Shown here in pieces: positions 1 to 39,956 of a stretch of DNA of 41,324 nucleotides (position 1 is its first letter; every line of letters starts with the position of its first letter). This DNA comes from a virus (Duplodnaviria > Heunggongvirae > Uroviricota > Caudoviricetes). The DNA lies in IMG/VR virus record IMGVR_UViG_2671180439_000007, positions 1-41,324 of that record. The stretch is one strand, 5' to 3'. Made by a program: the position numbers and the translations under genes. Below the pieces are notes generated by a model. That model worked only from the letters and a program-made list of their open reading frames with translations. It made no database searches and was not told the DNA's origin.

Positions 1-3
1 TAC

Positions 4-291
4 GTGTTTAAACGGTTAAATAAGAGAATGATTTTAATAAATAAATACACCCCTCCAACGCAGGAAGATTTAGCCAGACTGAAATCCGCACTAAATTACT
101 CCGGAAACCAAATGGCAGGGCTCGCAGGTGTAGCCAGCGATAGCCAATGGCGGAAATACACTGGCGGAGAGAGCCCCAGGGTAATGTCAAGACACATACT
201 GTTTTATATTGCAGCTCAGCTTGTTCTGTCTGATGAGCAACTTAACAATGTAATAAATAAAATGCGCGATATTGGCGCGGAGATAAAATAA
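4..291 (+). CDS. Small XRE-like HTH protein, possibly 5'-truncated by the window edge
   Basis: ORF begins at a GTG at position 4 with no upstream stop in the window; residues LKSALNYSGNQMAGLAGVASDSQWRKYTGG resemble an XRE helix-turn-helix; its TAA stop overlaps the next ATG (TAATG). Confidence 0.4.
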   Translation: MFKRLNKRMILINKYTPPTQEDLARLKSALNYSGNQMAGLAGVASDSQWRKYTGGESPRVMSRHILFYIAAQLVLSDEQLNNVINKMRDIGAEIK

Positions 292-1358
292 TGCTTGGTG
301 TTATCAGGTTCTTCCTCGCTTCATGTGTAATATACTTCCACCTAGCCGGTCAGTCTCCCGATTTGGGATTGTATGCAGTAAACTGCTTTTACGTAATCAG
401 CGGCTATTTAATTACGTTGATATTACACAGAACATATCACTTTGAATTTTCAAGATTTGCATTAAACAGATTTCTAAGATTATACCCCACGTACTGGTTT
501 TCTTGTTTTGTTGGTTTTATTGTAATTTCGACAAGCCAATCACCAACAATATTTCACCCATCATATGGGGTAAACTTTTCATTTGACGAGGCTCTATCTA
601 ACGTATTAATGATTCCTTGGGCATTTTACGCAGATAATATAATGACTTCGCCATTCCATAGTTTTGGTATTAACCCACTTCACTTTGACGGATATATGTT
701 CCGCATTGTTACTTCAAGTTGGTCAGTTGCTGTTGAAATAGTTTGTTATTTTCTTTTATGGGCTTTTATTGCGAGAAGTTATAAAACAGCATTACTAACA
801 ATGTTTTTAAGCATTGGTTACCACTGGTATTCTATTAAAAACGTAGACTCCCTGGTGGTCATTTACTCGCCATTTATCGCGGCCCTTCTCCCTTTCTCAA
901 TTGGTGCGCTGGGGTACTTTATATCCAACAAACTAAAAGAAGCAAATATCAAAATTTGTTCAAATGGAATAACACAAATACTATCATGCGCTATTTTTAT
1001 TATATTATTTACATCCAACTGGTATTTAAATTACATCAATAAAAACTCATTAGCATCGGTTAACTATTACGTCAACAACATAATAGCTTTGCTTGCCATA
1101 ATAAGCTTGCATTCAACCACGCCGCCTAGAAAAATAGAGAATGTGTGCAAAACTCTTGGTGATTTATCATACCCTATGTTTTTGTGTCAATTCTTTATGG
1201 GATTGGTTGCATGGGAGGCAACTGGCCACACGAATGTGACAAGGGGGCTAACGATATTTATAATCGGCTATGCCCTATCCTTTGCATTTGGATTGATAAC
1301 CATAAAGTTAATTGATCGACCAGTCTCGAAATTAAGAAATAAAATTCGGCAAACATAG
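291..1358 (+). CDS. Acyltransferase family 3 integral membrane protein (O-antigen acetylase-like, candidate lysogenic conversion gene)
   Basis: 355 aa, highly hydrophobic multi-pass protein with N-terminal pattern typical of acyltransferase_3 proteins; AT-rich relative to phage backbone; located at the prophage end after the tail fiber. Confidence 0.65.
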   Translation: MLGVIRFFLASCVIYFHLAGQSPDLGLYAVNCFYVISGYLITLILHRTYHFEFSRFALNRFLRLYPTYWFSCFVGFIVISTSQSPTIFHPSYGVNFSFDEALSNVLMIPWAFYADNIMTSPFHSFGINPLHFDGYMFRIVTSSWSVAVEIVCYFLLWAFIARSYKTALLTMFLSIGYHWYSIKNVDSLVVIYSPFIAALLPFSIGALGYFISNKLKEANIKICSNGITQILSCAIFIILFTSNWYLNYINKNSLASVNYYVNNIIALLAIISLHSTTPPRKIENVCKTLGDLSYPMFLCQFFMGLVAWEATGHTNVTRGLTIFIIGYALSFAFGLITIKLIDRPVSKLRNKIRQT

Positions 1359-23742: not shown

Positions 23743-24795
23743 TTATTTCCCCACCAGTTCACTTACCTCTTTCACCGTCTGATTAAACCGCTCTGACTCA
23801 AGTTCAACACCTAACGCCCGACGCCCCAGCGCCATTGCCGCTTTTATTGTGGAACCGGATCCCATAAAAAAATCAGCAACCAGATCACCGGGTCGACTAC
23901 TGGCATTGATTATTTGCCTGAGCATATCCGCCGGTTTCTCACACGGATGTTTACCCGGGTAGAACTGAACGGGTTTATGCATCCAGACATCGGTATAAGG
24001 CACGGAGACTGATACGGAGAAATAGCGCCGGAGAGATTTAAACTCATCCAGCAATTCAGAATATTTGCGATTCAGTGAATCATAAGATGCCACCAGCTGG
24101 TGGTGTGGTTGTTCCAGTTGTTGTTCCTGAAACTTCTCTGCCGCTATACGGGAAAACAGTGCCTGTAACTTCCGATAGTCAGCCTCATTCGGCAACTGCC
24201 ACTGACTGGCACCAAACCAGTGGGAAACCATATTTTTCTTACCTGTGGCTTCGGCAATTTGTTTTGCCGTTATACCCAGTTCGGCACGAGCATCCCTGAA
24301 ATACGATATCAGCGGTGCCATTATGTGCTGTTTGAGTTCCCTTTCTTTTGCCGCATAGCCGTCACTTTTGCCGCGATATGGCCCCTGGTAATGTTCAGCA
24401 AACAGAACGCGCTCTGTGGCAGGAAAATATGCGCGCAGACTTTCTTTATTACACCCATTCCAACGTCCGGACGGCTTCGCCCAGATGATATGGTTAAGCA
24501 CGTTGAAACGTTCACGCATCATGATCTCAATATCAGATGCCAGGCGATGCCCACAGAACAGGTAAAGGCTTCCGGCAGGTTTCAACACCCGCCAGAACTG
24601 GGCCAGACAGTGGTCCAGCCACTTAAGGTAATCTTCGTCCCCTTTCCACTGATTGTCCCAACCGTTGGGTTTCACCTTGAAGTAAGGCGGATCGGTAACA
24701 ATCAGGTCAATGGAATCATCAGGCAGGGACTGAATAAAATGCAGGCAATCAGCGTTGATTAAATCAATACTGTTTATTTTTACAGTGTTTTTCAT
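23743..24795 (-). CDS. DNA methyltransferase, beta-class amino-MTase (N6-adenine or N4-cytosine)
   Basis: 350 aa; DPPY motif (LIVTDPPYF) precedes C-terminal SAM motif FFMGSGST. Confidence 0.8.
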   Translation of the reverse strand: MKNTVKINSIDLINADCLHFIQSLPDDSIDLIVTDPPYFKVKPNGWDNQWKGDEDYLKWLDHCLAQFWRVLKPAGSLYLFCGHRLASDIEIMMRERFNVLNHIIWAKPSGRWNGCNKESLRAYFPATERVLFAEHYQGPYRGKSDGYAAKERELKQHIMAPLISYFRDARAELGITAKQIAEATGKKNMVSHWFGASQWQLPNEADYRKLQALFSRIAAEKFQEQQLEQPHHQLVASYDSLNRKYSELLDEFKSLRRYFSVSVSVPYTDVWMHKPVQFYPGKHPCEKPADMLRQIINASSRPGDLVADFFMGSGSTIKAAMALGRRALGVELESERFNQTVKEVSELVGK

Positions 24796-25387: not shown

Positions 25388-26548
25388 ATGACTACACTCA
25401 AAGAACTCAAAGAAGAGCTTGCTCAGATACAAGATGAACACGCTAAGAACAGAAAAAAGGCTGAAATTGCAGCTTTAACCGCTTCCGCTGACAATGAAAT
25501 CAGACTCGCTCAGAGAAACATTGGATACAATGTACGTGAGTGGACCGTTGAAGTCATTATTCAAAAGTATGGTGATAATATTGAAAATGACAAAAACGAG
25601 CTTTTTATTCCAGATTATCAACGTGATTACAAGTGGGATACAAAAACAGCCTCTCGCTTTATAGAAAGTATTCTATTAGACTTTCCAATACCTTACCTTT
25701 ACATTGCTGATGTATTTAATGAAGACCCTGAATTAGATGGTAGGGTAGAAATCATTGATGGTTCACAACGGATACGCTCTATTTATTATTTTTGGAACGA
25801 CCAATTTGAGTTAAAGGATTTGAAAGAGCTTAAAAGTTTAGAAGGTTTCAAATTTTCAGATCTTTTAGCTAGCCGCCAAAGAAGATTTTTAAGAGCTTCA
25901 CTAAGATTTATTGAGTTGAAAGGTGATGTTGAGGAACAACATAGAAGAGATTTATTTGAAAGGATCAACTCAGGTGTTAAAAGATTAGAAGCGATGGAAG
26001 TGAGGCATGGCTCAGATGCTGCTACCTCAATGTTCTATAAAGATGTTGTGACCCCATGCTCAACAAACTCACTTTTTTCCCAACTAGCTCCATTATCAGA
26101 CCGGAAACGGTCGAATGGCGATCATCGTGAGTTAGTTTTGAGATTTTTTGCATATTTAAATGATTTAGAAAACTATAAGGGATTTGTCCGTCCCTTTATT
26201 GATAATTATTTAAATGAACAAGCAGCAGCTGTGACTACTCAACAAGATGTTGATAGTTTTAAACATGATTTTGAAATGATGCTTGCTTTTGTTGCTACCC
26301 ATTTCCCTATTGGCTTTAAAAAGACCGCAACAAGTAAAACCACCCCACGAGCCAGATACGAAGCCATTGCCGTGGGAACTGCACTTGCATTAAAAACTAA
26401 CCCACAACTCCAGAGTCCAGCCGTACCTGTAGGTGAATGGCTATTTGAAGAGGAATTTGAAACACTTGTTACTGCTGATAGTGCAAACAATACCAGCCAG
26501 CTAAAAAACAGAATCTTTTACGTTAAAAATAAGTTGTTAGGGATTTAA
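25388..26548 (+). CDS. DUF262 (ParB/GmrS-like) domain protein
   Basis: 386 aa; N-terminal IPDYQRDYKW and IDGSQRIRSI motifs match DUF262 hallmarks; AT-rich codon usage. Confidence 0.75.
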   Translation: MTTLKELKEELAQIQDEHAKNRKKAEIAALTASADNEIRLAQRNIGYNVREWTVEVIIQKYGDNIENDKNELFIPDYQRDYKWDTKTASRFIESILLDFPIPYLYIADVFNEDPELDGRVEIIDGSQRIRSIYYFWNDQFELKDLKELKSLEGFKFSDLLASRQRRFLRASLRFIELKGDVEEQHRRDLFERINSGVKRLEAMEVRHGSDAATSMFYKDVVTPCSTNSLFSQLAPLSDRKRSNGDHRELVLRFFAYLNDLENYKGFVRPFIDNYLNEQAAAVTTQQDVDSFKHDFEMMLAFVATHFPIGFKKTATSKTTPRARYEAIAVGTALALKTNPQLQSPAVPVGEWLFEEEFETLVTADSANNTSQLKNRIFYVKNKLLGI

Positions 26549-26550
26549 AA

Positions 26551-27240
26551 ATGAGTCTAATTGATTTACGAGATGAATATGAAGAAAGAGCAAGAGACAT
26601 TATGGAACTGCTTTCTCTTGCATCATCTATAGAGATTCATACTCAGCAGTTAGATCCGCAAGCGCATCAAGATGAAATAGAATCTAATATCCTAAGGGTA
26701 AATATTTTAAAATCATCCGTTCATATGATGCTATATAATCAAGTTGAAAATACTGCCAGAGGTTGCATCGAGTCAATTTATGATCATTTACAAGATAATG
26801 ATGTGAATTACGCATCACTCAGGGAGAAGCTTCAAGTAAATATATTACATAGAATTGTTTCAGATAATGAAACAGGGCAATCCCTTTATAAAAAGATAGG
26901 CACTGACATTTCCAAAAGAATAATTTCAGCCTCATTGAATATTCGTAAAGAATTCAATGGTAATGTTTGCAAGCCTGTATTACAAAAAATAACGCAGGCT
27001 TACGGAATAACTATCGCAAACTCACCTGAATGTAGAAATGGTATTGACTTAGACTTGCTTAAGGATATCAGAAACGAACTCGCGCATGGAAGTACTAGCT
27101 TCTCTAAAAAGGGGCAAATTGACCCCTTAGAAGAAGTTAAGTCTAGAGCAGAGAGAGTTGATCTATATCTTCGTTTATTAATAAACTCAACTGAAGATTA
27201 TATTATCTCTAACGGATATTTATCCCCTCAACATGCCTAA
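26551..27240 (+). CDS. HEPN-like nuclease-family protein (Rx4H motif)
   Basis: 229 aa; C-terminal DIRNELAHGS fits HEPN R-x4-H; starts 3 nt after DUF262 stop. Confidence 0.65.
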   Translation: MSLIDLRDEYEERARDIMELLSLASSIEIHTQQLDPQAHQDEIESNILRVNILKSSVHMMLYNQVENTARGCIESIYDHLQDNDVNYASLREKLQVNILHRIVSDNETGQSLYKKIGTDISKRIISASLNIRKEFNGNVCKPVLQKITQAYGITIANSPECRNGIDLDLLKDIRNELAHGSTSFSKKGQIDPLEEVKSRAERVDLYLRLLINSTEDYIISNGYLSPQHA

Positions 27241-28249
27241 CAAATGTTCTCCCTATTACTTGGCCAATTATAGGGGGAACAGCATTACCAATCATCGTTC
27301 CTAACTTTTGGAATGAAAAAGGCGTATTTTTTCCAATAAATTTATAATCCATAGGAAAAGATTGTAAAATAGCAGCTTCACGCAAAGTTATTGCTCTATT
27401 TTGCTCAGGATGTCCGAATCGCCCATTACCATATCCATAACATTGGGTAGTTATTGTAGGACTAGTATCGTCCCAAACCATCCGTCCATAAACACTTTTA
27501 TAGGTAGCACCTGAATGCTTTTTATGGCAATCCGCTCTAATTTCTTCAGGCCAATCATCCCACGTACCACCTGGTAAAGAGTGCAAGATTCGTTTAAGGT
27601 TAATATCCCTTAATTTAGGCGAACGATGCAATGGATCACTTTCGAGTTTCTCCCCTGCACCTATTTTTGGCAACTGACCAATAGCATCCTTTACTGTAAC
27701 TTTACGGCTTACTTTTTTTTGATCAAGGCTGATTGGCCCCAATATGGACCCAATTAGAATTAATCTACGTCTATTTTGAGGCAAGCCATACTCGGAACAT
27801 TTTACAACGTCGTACCACAGATGATACCCAAGAGTCTTTAATACACTAACAAACTCTTCAAAAACCTTATGATTTCTAAGTTGAGGAACATTTTCCATAG
27901 TCACAAGCTCTGGCATGACATCACTTACAATCCTCTGAAACTCAGATAAAAGACGCCACTTTGTATCATCTTTTCTGCTATTTGGATTACGATACTTGGA
28001 AAACGGTTGGCAAGGGGCACAGCCTGCAAGTAATCTAATATTTCCTTCCTTGAACATAGCAGACACATCGCTGGATTGCAGTTCAGTAACTGACTGGTTA
28101 ATGAACTTCGTTAAGGGATTATTGCTCTCAATAGCGAAACGGCAGGACTCATCAATATCAATGCCATGAGAAACTTCAATCCCGGCTTTTTTTAGCCCAA
28201 AAGTTAAGCCCCCTGCGCCACAAAAAATGTCTACTGCTTGAATGTTCAC
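27209..28249 (-). CDS. DNA (cytosine-5)-methyltransferase
   Basis: 346 aa, GTG start with GGAG SD; motifs FCGAGG (I), PCQPFS (IV), ENV (VI), QNRRR (VIII); 3' end overlaps HEPN gene 3' end by 32 nt. Confidence 0.9.
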   Translation of the reverse strand: MNIQAVDIFCGAGGLTFGLKKAGIEVSHGIDIDESCRFAIESNNPLTKFINQSVTELQSSDVSAMFKEGNIRLLAGCAPCQPFSKYRNPNSRKDDTKWRLLSEFQRIVSDVMPELVTMENVPQLRNHKVFEEFVSVLKTLGYHLWYDVVKCSEYGLPQNRRRLILIGSILGPISLDQKKVSRKVTVKDAIGQLPKIGAGEKLESDPLHRSPKLRDINLKRILHSLPGGTWDDWPEEIRADCHKKHSGATYKSVYGRMVWDDTSPTITTQCYGYGNGRFGHPEQNRAITLREAAILQSFPMDYKFIGKNTPFSFQKLGTMIGNAVPPIIGQVIGRTFVRHVEGINIR

Positions 28250-38476: not shown

Positions 38477-38826
38477 TGGAGCCATACAGCCTCACACTCG
38501 ATGAGGCCTGTCATTTTCTCAAGATATCCAGACCGACTGCCATTAACTGGATACGCACAGGGCGTCTTCAGGCAACACGCAAAGATCCCACTAAGAATAA
38601 ATCTCCTTACCTCACAACACGACAAGCCTGCATTGCGGCTCTTCAGTCTCCGCTGCATACTGTCCAGGTGAGCGCGGGTGATGGCATAACAGAGGAAAGA
38701 AAATGTCACTCTTCCGCAGAGGTGAAATATGGTACGCCAGTTTCACATTGCCGAACGGTAAAAGATTTAAACAGTCTCTTGGAACAAAGGACAAAAGGCA
38801 GGCGACAGAACTCCATGACAAGCTAA
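38476..38826 (+). CDS. xis: Excisionase
   Basis: 116 aa; [29 protein letters not shown]; overlaps integrase start as in P22-type modules. Confidence 0.65.
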
Positions 38827-39866
38827 AGGCTGAAGCATGGCGGGTCAGCAAACTTGGTGAAATACCTGATATAACGTTCGAGGAAGCGTGTGTCAGGTGG
38901 CTTGAAGAGAAAGCACATAAAAAATCACTGGACGATGACAAAAGCCGGATCGGATTCTGGCTTCAACATTTCGCAGGAATGCAACTAAGAGACATTACTG
39001 AATCAAAAATTTATTCAGCAATGCAGAAAATGACGAACCGGCGTCATGAGGAAAACTGGAGACTCAGGGCAGAAGCATGCAGAAAAAAAGGGAAACCTGT
39101 TCCAGAATACACGCCAAAACCAGCGTCCGTTGCAACGAAGGCTACGCATCTTTCATTTATAAAGGCCCTACTAAGAGCCGCAGAGCGTGAATGGAAAATG
39201 CTGGATAAGGCACCAATTATTAAAGTGCCTCAACCAAAGAATAAACGGATCCGCTGGCTGGAGCCCCATGAAGCACAAAGGCTGATTGATGAATGTCCGG
39301 AGCCATTAAAGTCTGTTGTTGAATTTGCACTGGCAACAGGCTTAAGACGCTCGAACATCATCAACCTTGAATGGCAACAAATAGACATGCAGCGCCGGGT
39401 GGCATGGATAAACCCGGAAGAGAGTAAATCAAACCGCGCAATTGGCGTTGCGCTGAATGATACTGCATGTCGCGTTTTGAAAAAACAAATCGGGAATCAT
39501 CACCGTTGGGTATTTGTGTACAAGGAAAGCTGTACCAAACCAGACGGAACGAAAGCGCCAACAGTAAGGAAGATGCGGTATGACGCAAACACAGCCTGGA
39601 AAGCGGCGCTGAGACGGGCTGGTATTGATGATTTCAGATTTCACGACTTGAGACACACCTGGGCAAGTTGGCTGGTTCAAGCCGGAGTCCCGTTGTCAGT
39701 GTTACAGGAAATGGGAGGCTGGGAGTCTATCGAAATGGTTCGTCGATATGCTCACCTTGCACCTAATCACCTTACCGAACACGCACGGCAAATAGACTCG
39801 ATCCTGAACCCATCGGTCCCAAATTTGTCCCAGTCAAAAAATAAGGAAGGTACTAATGATGTGTAA
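38703..39866 (+). CDS. int: Tyrosine integrase, P22 Int family
   Basis: 387 aa; N-terminus [46 protein letters not shown] matches recalled P22 Int; C-terminal [10 protein letters not shown]...RYAHL catalytic region; ends 15 bp from tRNA 3' end. Confidence 0.9.
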
Positions 39867-39880
39867 CTTATTGATTTTAA

Positions 39881-39956
39881 TGGTGCCGATAATAGGAGTC
39901 GAACCTACGACCTTCGCATTACGAATGCGCTGCTCTACCAACTGAGCTATATCGGC
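39881..39956 (-). tRNA. thrW: tRNA-Thr (CGU anticodon)
   Basis: Reverse complement reads GCCGATATAGCTCAGTTGGTAGAGCAGCGCATTCGTAATGCGAAGGTCGTAGGTTCGACTCCTATTATCGGCACCA; cloverleaf with CGT anticodon and CCA end. Confidence 0.9.

Follow-up and report, generated by a model that had tools for sequence, protein, structure and literature searches.

Prophage genes that modify bacterial surface polysaccharides are the closest described relatives of the element considered here. The gtrABC genes of P22/SfV-type phages are O-antigen-modifying morons that lie between the tail-fibre or tailspike genes and the attachment site, and gtr of P22 is phase-variable through Dam/OxyR. Oac of Shigella phage Sf6 is an experimentally proven O-antigen acetylase that brings about serotype conversion. 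The phage-borne enzymes consisting solely of an acyltransferase-3 (AT3) domain that have been reviewed, namely Sf6 Oac and other S. flexneri Oac proteins, act on the O-antigen (PMC9558356), and prophage acetyltransferases have been reported in 5–30% of Klebsiella prophages per K-locus (PMC13123978). Serratia phage vB_SspM_BZS1, which is inducible, carries a helix-turn-helix (HTH) gene and an AT3 gene between fibre genes whose products were found in virions; its authors suggested that AT3 acetylates the O-antigen and protects against superinfection, and stated that they had "no clue" regarding the HTH gene (PMC7556043). Here we describe an HTH–AT3 pair at the left edge of a 41,324-nucleotide (nt) stretch of Caudoviricetes DNA (IMG/VR record IMGVR_UViG_2671180439_000007), referred to below, at its full length, as the window. 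This type of module is already known from Sf6 Oac, phiV10 and BZS1, and the same layout has been published for BZS1.

We consider it probable that the pair is a self-contained, probably self-regulated two-gene moron, lying antisense among the tail-fibre genes of a temperate phage with a Mu-like tail that is integrated at thrW of E. coli, and that its AT3 protein acetylates a surface glycan. The evidence comes from the organization of the two genes, the conservation of the acyltransferase, the company that the HTH family keeps in other prophages, a palindrome in the promoter region of its relatives, and the exchange of the AT3 allele together with the tip of an adjacent tail fibre.

The two-gene unit and its acyltransferase

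Two open reading frames (ORFs) occupy the + strand at the left edge of the window, at 4–291 and 291–1358. Position 1 is the window edge, and the promoter region, which lies outside the window, was read from a related locus, L004; the first 27 nt of the window (1–27, +) form the 5′ leader of the unit and are identical to L004 9711–9737. All 30 aligned homologues of the first protein begin at a methionine matching the ATG at position 28 (MRLIN or MILIN), and gene callers chose the same start in a near-identical locus, so that the HTH gene spans 28–291 (+) and encodes 87 amino acids (aa). An earlier note on this DNA, made from the letters alone, had begun the gene at position 4, which is a GTG; its start thus has to be moved, while its assignment of the product to the DNA-binding type stands with moderate support.

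The junction between the two genes (279–293, +) contains a GGAG Shine–Dalgarno sequence at 279–282, inside the HTH gene and 8 nt 5′ of the AT3 start codon. The TAA stop (289–291) and the ATG start (291–293) have one base in common, giving the TAATG overlap at 289–293 that the note had pointed out, and this 1-nt overlap is retained in an integrase–HTH–AT3 island of another E. coli (L176). The HTH and AT3 genes form a tightly packed bicistron, in which the overlap and the internal Shine–Dalgarno sequence suggest that translation of AT3 is coupled to that of HTH.

The second gene (291–1358, +) encodes a 355-aa membrane protein that matches Pfam Acyl_transf_3 (PF01757) with 77.1 bits against a gathering cut-off of 31 (E = 1.6e-21), residues 4–336 aligning with profile positions 6–323 of 326, and that also matches phrog_3333, "O-acetyltransferase". 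Its AlphaFold model (pLDDT 93.9, pTM 0.92) contains ten long helices, predicted to be transmembrane helices (TMH). The protein ends at residue 355, within or just after TMH10, with no 11th helix, no second Pfam domain and no SGNH domain. Since nothing follows TMH10, it is of the AT3-only kind, like Oac, rather than an AT3–SGNH fusion, and transfer to the sugar would thus be performed by AT3 alone or with an unlinked partner. NCBIfam returned no match for either the AT3 or the HTH protein. A fold search with the AT3 model against the PDB gave no significant match; the only structurally meaningful neighbour was HGSNAT (8vkj_B, TMq 0.45, non-significant), a neighbour to be expected for the TmAT superfamily (PMC12423673). 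Among isolated phages, megablast found no close homologue of the AT3 gene and tblastn a single Vibrio phage match of 28% identity.

Mutagenesis of OafA and Oac has shown the R/K-X10-H, FFXISG and RXXR motifs to be essential (R14/H25 in OafA; PMC7448272), and in OafB attention has been drawn to Trp138, Glu143 and Tyr194, which correspond to a Trp-x4-Glu pair and a tyrosine in the TMH5–6 loop (PMC9833829). Counterparts of all these residues are found in the window protein, where their conservation was measured in alignments of 42–46 homologues. TMH1 contains R6-X10-H17, with H17 invariant and R6 at least 90% conserved; TMH2 contains C32-F33-Y-V-I-S37-G38, with F33 and S37 invariant and G38 invariant or nearly so; and TMH3 contains, at its cytoplasmic face, R60-F-L-R63, with both arginines invariant. 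W144 and E149 (W-x4-E) are likewise invariant, as is the loop tyrosine Y192 in one alignment (A3). Profile alignment with Sf6 Oac by hhalign (Prob 90%, E = 1.5e-6, 25% identity over 136 columns) sets Oac R73/R76 against R60/R63, and the ISG motif and W144/E149/Y153 align in the same way. Judged by its sequence, ORF2 is an intact, full-length AT3-only acyltransferase with all of the residues essential in OafA, OafB and Oac, and it most likely acetylates a bacterial surface sugar.

The earlier note had described an AT-rich, multi-pass acyltransferase, had proposed a search with the acyltransferase-3 family model, and had named a lack of the conserved catalytic residues as a finding against its reading. 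The ten modelled helices and the match to the Pfam family agree with its description, every published essential motif is kept, and the gene has 36% GC, compared with 50% for the window and 51–55% for the neighbouring tail genes. In base composition, the unit is foreign to the phage that carries it. Ratios of nonsynonymous to synonymous substitution (dN/dS) of 0.24 for AT3, measured against an 84%-identical allele, and 0.28 for the HTH gene show that both are under purifying selection.

The HTH family, its cargo and a palindrome in the promoter

We assign the 87-aa protein, the proposed autoregulator of the unit, to the XRE-like DNA-binding proteins with moderate confidence. It matches phrog_20491 (105.6 bits), a family of unknown function in PHROGs, and has 194 homologues at E ≤ 1e-3, nearly all of those listed being 86–90 aa long; their start and core are conserved in alignment. 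Twenty-five of 30 family members match HTH_31 weakly (best E = 1.4e-4) and 18 match Xre-like-HTH, all under the respective cut-offs, and hhalign places the protein on 434 Cro in the canonical register, with a Prob of only 6%. The best PDB sequence matches, the HTH of AcrIF24 and Aca3, are non-significant (E = 0.12–0.56) and have a PPT...RKYT pattern in common with it. Foldseek with the HTH model found no significant match, although the proteins returned were mostly of XRE type. In many E. coli RefSeq genomes the gene is left unannotated by PGAP or appears as a "hypothetical protein" (for example, NZ_CP126602.1 2097991–2098354), and only one record among those listed is labelled "transcriptional regulator".

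The genes that follow members of this family were surveyed in one genome per species (80 loci) and in IMG/VR (80 of 243 relatives), giving 160 HTH loci together, with cargo defined as a gene starting within a few bases of the HTH stop. About 30 of the 160 loci carry AT3 genes, which belong to several unrelated lineages; hexapeptide-repeat acetyltransferases follow the HTH gene at 10 loci and SGNH/GDSL lipoproteins at 7, while Wzy_C, GT25 and GH43-like lipoprotein cargo were each found once, and DUF1796, T5orf172 or unknown cargo at a few loci. At 56 loci, no ORF of at least 60 aa starts near the HTH stop. Junctions between HTH gene and cargo usually overlap (TAATG, ATGA, GTGA) or leave a gap of at most 12 nt. 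At several distant loci, genes for baseplate J, gp48 and fibres follow closely on the other strand, and Burkholderia phage phiE131 has an HTH gene and an SGNH hydrolase at the same position. The survey shows that the HTH family is conserved in prophages of Gamma- and Betaproteobacteria and that the genes behind it encode interchangeable enzymes predicted to modify polysaccharides.

AT3 relatives in Pantoea, Sodalis, Stenotrophomonas and Pseudomonas prophages adjoin fibre or tailspike genes. That the HTH gene is always coupled to AT3 was rejected, as the cargo varies and the AT3 genes of Pantoea and Sodalis stand without it. Since AT3 relatives also occur in the same slot without the HTH gene, the two are best regarded as separable modules, and the HTH protein would not be needed for AT3 function.

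A promoter-like sequence, TTGACG-17 nt-TAACAT, is present at L004 9677–9705, which corresponds to 6–34 nt to the left of where the window begins. At 77 of 152 unique loci, the 400 nt preceding the HTH gene contain the palindrome AGC[AC]CC-N3-GG[GT]GCT, whose density is 1.96 per kb in this upstream region and 0.007 per kb in the rest of the same loci. Of 67 distinct contexts, 66 have T and A at its borders, which extends it to a 17-bp palindrome (consensus TAGCACCAAAGGGGCTA), and in the 67 unique contexts it takes up precisely the 17 nt that separate a TTGACA-like −35 from a TATTAT-like −10 element. Five AT3 loci lacking the HTH gene also lack the palindrome, and a literature search on its sequence found no paper. 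Inside the window, five matches with 3 mismatches were counted, a number equalled in 31 of 100 shuffles, so that no extra copy stands above chance. The simplest reading of this arrangement is that the HTH protein may repress its own gene through the palindrome. Phase variation of the Dam/OxyR type, as in P22 gtr, was considered and rejected, the region upstream of HTH–AT3 being devoid of GATC.

The leader is organized differently in most relatives. Between the promoter and the HTH gene (for example, L168 4790–5000) they encode a protein of ~57 aa with a C-terminal membrane helix (phrog_6330/9071), and they also have a hairpin, AGCCCC-N4-GGGGCT, with a T-run (−18.6 kcal/mol, z = −4.4). The window lineage has neither the membrane-protein gene nor the terminator-like hairpin, and this arrangement looks like an attenuator lost in the E. 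coli lineage. A leader motif, (A/G)GGTAGCG, which includes the TAGC half-site, lies ~10–20 nt 3′ of the −10 element in Enterobacterales and Burkholderiales (L009–L168) and is not present in the window lineage.

Place in the prophage and exchange with the fibre tip

At the right end of the window, proA and tRNA-Thr(CGT) are 100% identical to those of E. coli, which identifies the host. The prophage is inserted at this tRNA gene (thrW) beside proA, a site also used by Shigella serotype-converting phages, those of the Sf6 type included; an Rfam scan found only the tRNA. The integrase gene lies at 38703–39866 and the attachment end (tRNA-Thr, proA) within 38703–39956, that is, on the far side of the window from the HTH–AT3 unit. 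The earlier note had placed the unit at the end of the prophage, and this could not be upheld: 3–4.7 kb more phage DNA lies beyond base 1 in relatives. At loci with the same AT3 (99.4% identical), about 4.7 kb of phage DNA separates the equivalent of base 1 from host lepA and comprises a divergent 853/876-aa tail fibre, a 304-aa protein, a truncated Gin-type invertase and two small ORFs, while in E. coli Ec1117 the prophage extends ~3.2 kb further, to yecD, with an SGNH-type fibre and a 251-aa protein before that gene. The unit therefore lies antisense between two fibre genes, at that distance from the prophage end.

On its 3′ side, the unit is followed by a stable hairpin (1365–1401) between the convergent AT3 and tail-fibre genes, with folding energies of −19.9 kcal/mol (z = −5.0) on the + strand and −20.3 kcal/mol (z = −4.0) on the − strand; the + strand form lacks a canonical U-run, and the terminator scan did not pick the hairpin up. 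Beyond it lies the gene for a 255-aa glycine-rich tail-fibre protein (1427–2194, −), which matches Gly_rich_2 (34 bits) and tail-fibre families in PHROGs.

The structural module is 99% identical in complete E. coli genomes, but these have another AT3 allele, of 363 aa (~50% identical); in other E. coli this module is found, again at 99% identity, at another chromosomal site near yecD/aspS. The AT3 allele of the window was found in none of 5,426 complete E. coli genomes. When the window is compared with Ec1117, identity collapses over ~300–1923 and is 98–100% on both sides, where the HTH gene and the N-terminus of the fibre are located. The divergent block thus consists of the AT3 gene, the hairpin at 1365–1401 and the C-terminal 165 aa of the fibre (1427–1923). 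Between the 255-aa fibre and its 261-aa counterpart, identity is 97.8% over the N-terminal 90 aa and 39.9% over the C-terminal part. The 355-aa AT3 was accompanied by the 255-aa small fibre at all five loci, the 363-aa AT3 by the 261-aa small fibre at all eight intact loci, and DUF1796 cargo by a 264-aa small fibre at one locus. The AT3 allele and the adjacent fibre tip are exchanged as one block. A corresponding match between AT3 allele and large tail fibre was rejected, since the 363-aa allele occurs with large fibres of 450–777 aa.

Other observations concern the mobility and state of the unit and its surroundings. In E. coli HS-type strains the prophage around the unit is a remnant. At L176 (4147–7068) the integrase gene is followed directly by the HTH gene, an AT3 gene with 84% identity and IS1; no other part of the phage is evident there, and the two genes would therefore survive or move as a unit. 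The common 363-aa allele has a T8 run in codons 6–9 (aaggttttttttggc; L001 6291–6330 and equivalents), possibly a slipped-strand on/off site in that allele, and the run is interrupted in the window allele (aggttcttcctc).

The large fibre on the left flank (853/876 aa; L004 5807–9705) has a conserved N-terminus (phrog_9750) and no Pfam match. A search of PDB sequences found no relative for it, so that a GH16 active-site reading of its ELDIIEG motif is unconfirmed. The 304-aa protein next to it has a partial ArabFuran-catal match, and the fibre, this protein and the truncated Gin-type invertase together suggest a former invertible fibre segment. Elsewhere in the window, a second opposite-strand insert (25388–27240, +) encodes a GmrSD_N/DUF262 protein of 386 aa followed by an MAE_28990-type HEPN protein of 229 aa, probably an anti-phage defence pair; it adjoins a C5 cytosine methylase, and an N6/N4 methylase lies further along (27209–28249 and 23743–24795, both −).

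Proposed role, alternatives and relation to known systems

If the unit is a self-regulated moron of the kind proposed, a sigma-70 promoter just left of the window would transcribe HTH–AT3 in the lysogen, an HTH dimer bound to the palindrome in the promoter spacer, degenerate in this lineage, would keep expression low, and ribosomes that end the HTH gene would re-initiate at the AT3 start. The AT3 protein in the inner membrane would take acetyl groups from cytoplasmic acetyl-CoA, with R6/H17 and R60/R63 involved, and pass them to a sugar facing the periplasm. This acceptor would most likely be the O-antigen, or else another surface glycan recognised by the adjacent glycine-rich fibre, and its acetylation could alter the serotype and prevent the same or related phages from adsorbing. 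Genomic features of lysogenic conversion are present, namely a promoter-like sequence of its own, foreign composition, location on the opposite strand and proximity to receptor-binding genes.

A wider reading, which we put forward more tentatively and would rate as somewhat doubtful, is that the HTH gene and the 17-bp palindrome constitute a "driver" that is portable and represses itself. It would allow temperate phages of Gamma- and Betaproteobacteria to express, from the tail-fibre region, glycan-editing enzymes that can replace one another (AT3 and hexapeptide acetyltransferases, SGNH esterases or lipoproteins, Wzy-like polymerases and GT25 glycosyltransferases), and the editor and the fibre tip, that is, receptor masking and receptor recognition, would be exchanged as one cassette.

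Several observations weigh against the proposed self-regulated, surface-acetylating moron. With regard to regulation, the HTH protein of the window is itself below the Pfam threshold (HTH_31, 14.6 bits against a cut-off of 27), its model is poor (pLDDT 61, five helices predicted), the spacer in the window lineage, which lies outside the window, holds only a degenerate copy of the palindrome with 3 mismatches in 17 (CGCCCCTTCAGGGCT / CCGCCCCTTCAGGGCTA), and two AT3 loci that were checked, in Pantoea and Sodalis, are without the HTH gene. With regard to the target, AT3 has no substrate-specific signature that points to an acceptor sugar, O-antigen included, and the joint exchange of AT3 and fibre tip may be plain physical linkage. 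The 363-aa allele is paired with at least eight large-fibre alleles, and an AT3 differing from that of the window by 2 residues was found at five loci in another genus, where lepA is 86% identical to that of E. coli. One source names Klebsiella pneumoniae for a near-identical AT3 protein. Such near-identity between genera argues either for a substrate that the genera have in common or for recent transfer.

The pairing with several large fibres and the near-identity between genera also favour an alternative target, an envelope glycan common across Enterobacteriaceae such as enterobacterial common antigen (ECA), lipopolysaccharide core, osmoregulated periplasmic glucans or colanic acid, with AT3 acting as a general fitness or immune-evasion factor rather than by blocking receptors. 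AT3-only enzymes for ECA (WecH) and for other periplasmic glycans do exist, but the phage-borne ones reviewed act on the O-antigen (PMC9558356). The AT3 allele is, moreover, swapped along with the neighbouring fibre tip, and its subfamily is consistently prophage-borne beside receptor-binding genes. E. coli and Klebsiella also have some O-antigens in common, which counts against the need for a more widespread glycan, and we consider such a target unlikely, although it is the most serious of the alternatives. It is less likely still that the HTH protein regulates something other than AT3, for instance the divergent large-fibre gene or another phage promoter, or that it is antitoxin-like, its position before AT3 being a by-product of mosaicism. 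In this lineage only ~40 nt separate the promoter with the palindrome from the beginning of the divergent fibre gene, the 18 family members matching Xre-like-HTH do so to an antitoxin HTH family, and AT3 relatives occupy the same slot without the HTH gene. In 67 contexts, however, the palindrome overlaps −35 and −10 elements that point into the HTH gene, whatever lies on the other side; cargo follows within 12 nt of the HTH gene at most cargo-bearing loci, no further palindrome in the window rises above chance, and there is no conserved toxin-like partner.

Finally, the unit could be silent or decaying cargo without effect on the lysogen, as might be suspected from the degenerate operator copy, the remnant state of the prophage in HS-type strains, and the frequency with which annotation pipelines skip the HTH gene. 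This we regard as very improbable: both ORFs are full length, their dN/dS values are those of constrained genes, and the catalytic motifs are all intact. Persistence of the unit where the rest of the prophage has decayed instead suggests selection on the side of the host. A self-regulated unit that acetylates a surface glycan is the reading we prefer.

Acetylation of surface polysaccharides by phage-borne enzymes alters serotype, recognition by vaccines and antibodies, and susceptibility to other phages, therapeutic ones included. As the window allele is rare in E. coli and near-identical in another genus, it could mark recent transfer of a surface-modifying trait between genera. A small regulator and operator in front of swappable glycan-editing genes beside tail fibres may also serve as a simple genomic flag for candidates of lysogenic conversion, including those without recognizable domains, and phrog_20491, so far unannotated, gains a testable role. 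The find is otherwise fairly ordinary, and it is the pattern of regulator, operator and cargo that possibly deserves follow-up.

Among known systems, p24–p26 of BZS1 are closest in layout. That phage has Mu-like baseplate genes (gp44–48), and its HTH gene, the product of which is 67% identical to the window HTH protein, precedes an AT3 gene. As in the window lineage, the two genes run opposite to the others around them, with a small fibre gene on one side and a large virion-associated fibre on the other. The BZS1 AT3 is, however, only ~25% identical and belongs to another AT3 lineage, an additional gene for a 57-aa membrane protein and a terminator hairpin lie before its HTH gene, and its large fibre was read as a deacetylase by the authors (PMC7556043), whereas that of the window lineage is without a Pfam match. 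For both modules, the function is proposed from sequence. On the regulatory side, the Aca/XRE-type autorepressors (the C-terminal HTH of AcrIF24, Aca3 and C-proteins) are likewise small HTH proteins in operons with variable cargo and have a palindromic site over the core promoter, for which the candidate operator predicted here would be the counterpart. The similarity (E = 0.12–0.56) falls short of family membership, and here the HTH gene precedes its cargo.

With regard to the enzyme, gtrABC differs in that it achieves glucosylation by means of three proteins. OafA, OafB and OatA have the membrane domain family and the essential TMH1 and TMH3 residues in common with the window protein, which lacks their 11th helix and C-terminal periplasmic SGNH domain. 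The Oac protein of Sf6 differs in its setting, with oac directly beside int/attP of a podovirus and no HTH gene upstream, and its likeness to the window protein is visible only by profile comparison, tblastn at 1e-5 missing Sf6. It is nonetheless an AT3-only protein with ten membrane helices that has the R-X10-H, ISG, RxxR and W-x4-E motifs in common with the window protein, and oac, too, has its own promoter and is convergent with a receptor-binding gene, that of the tailspike.

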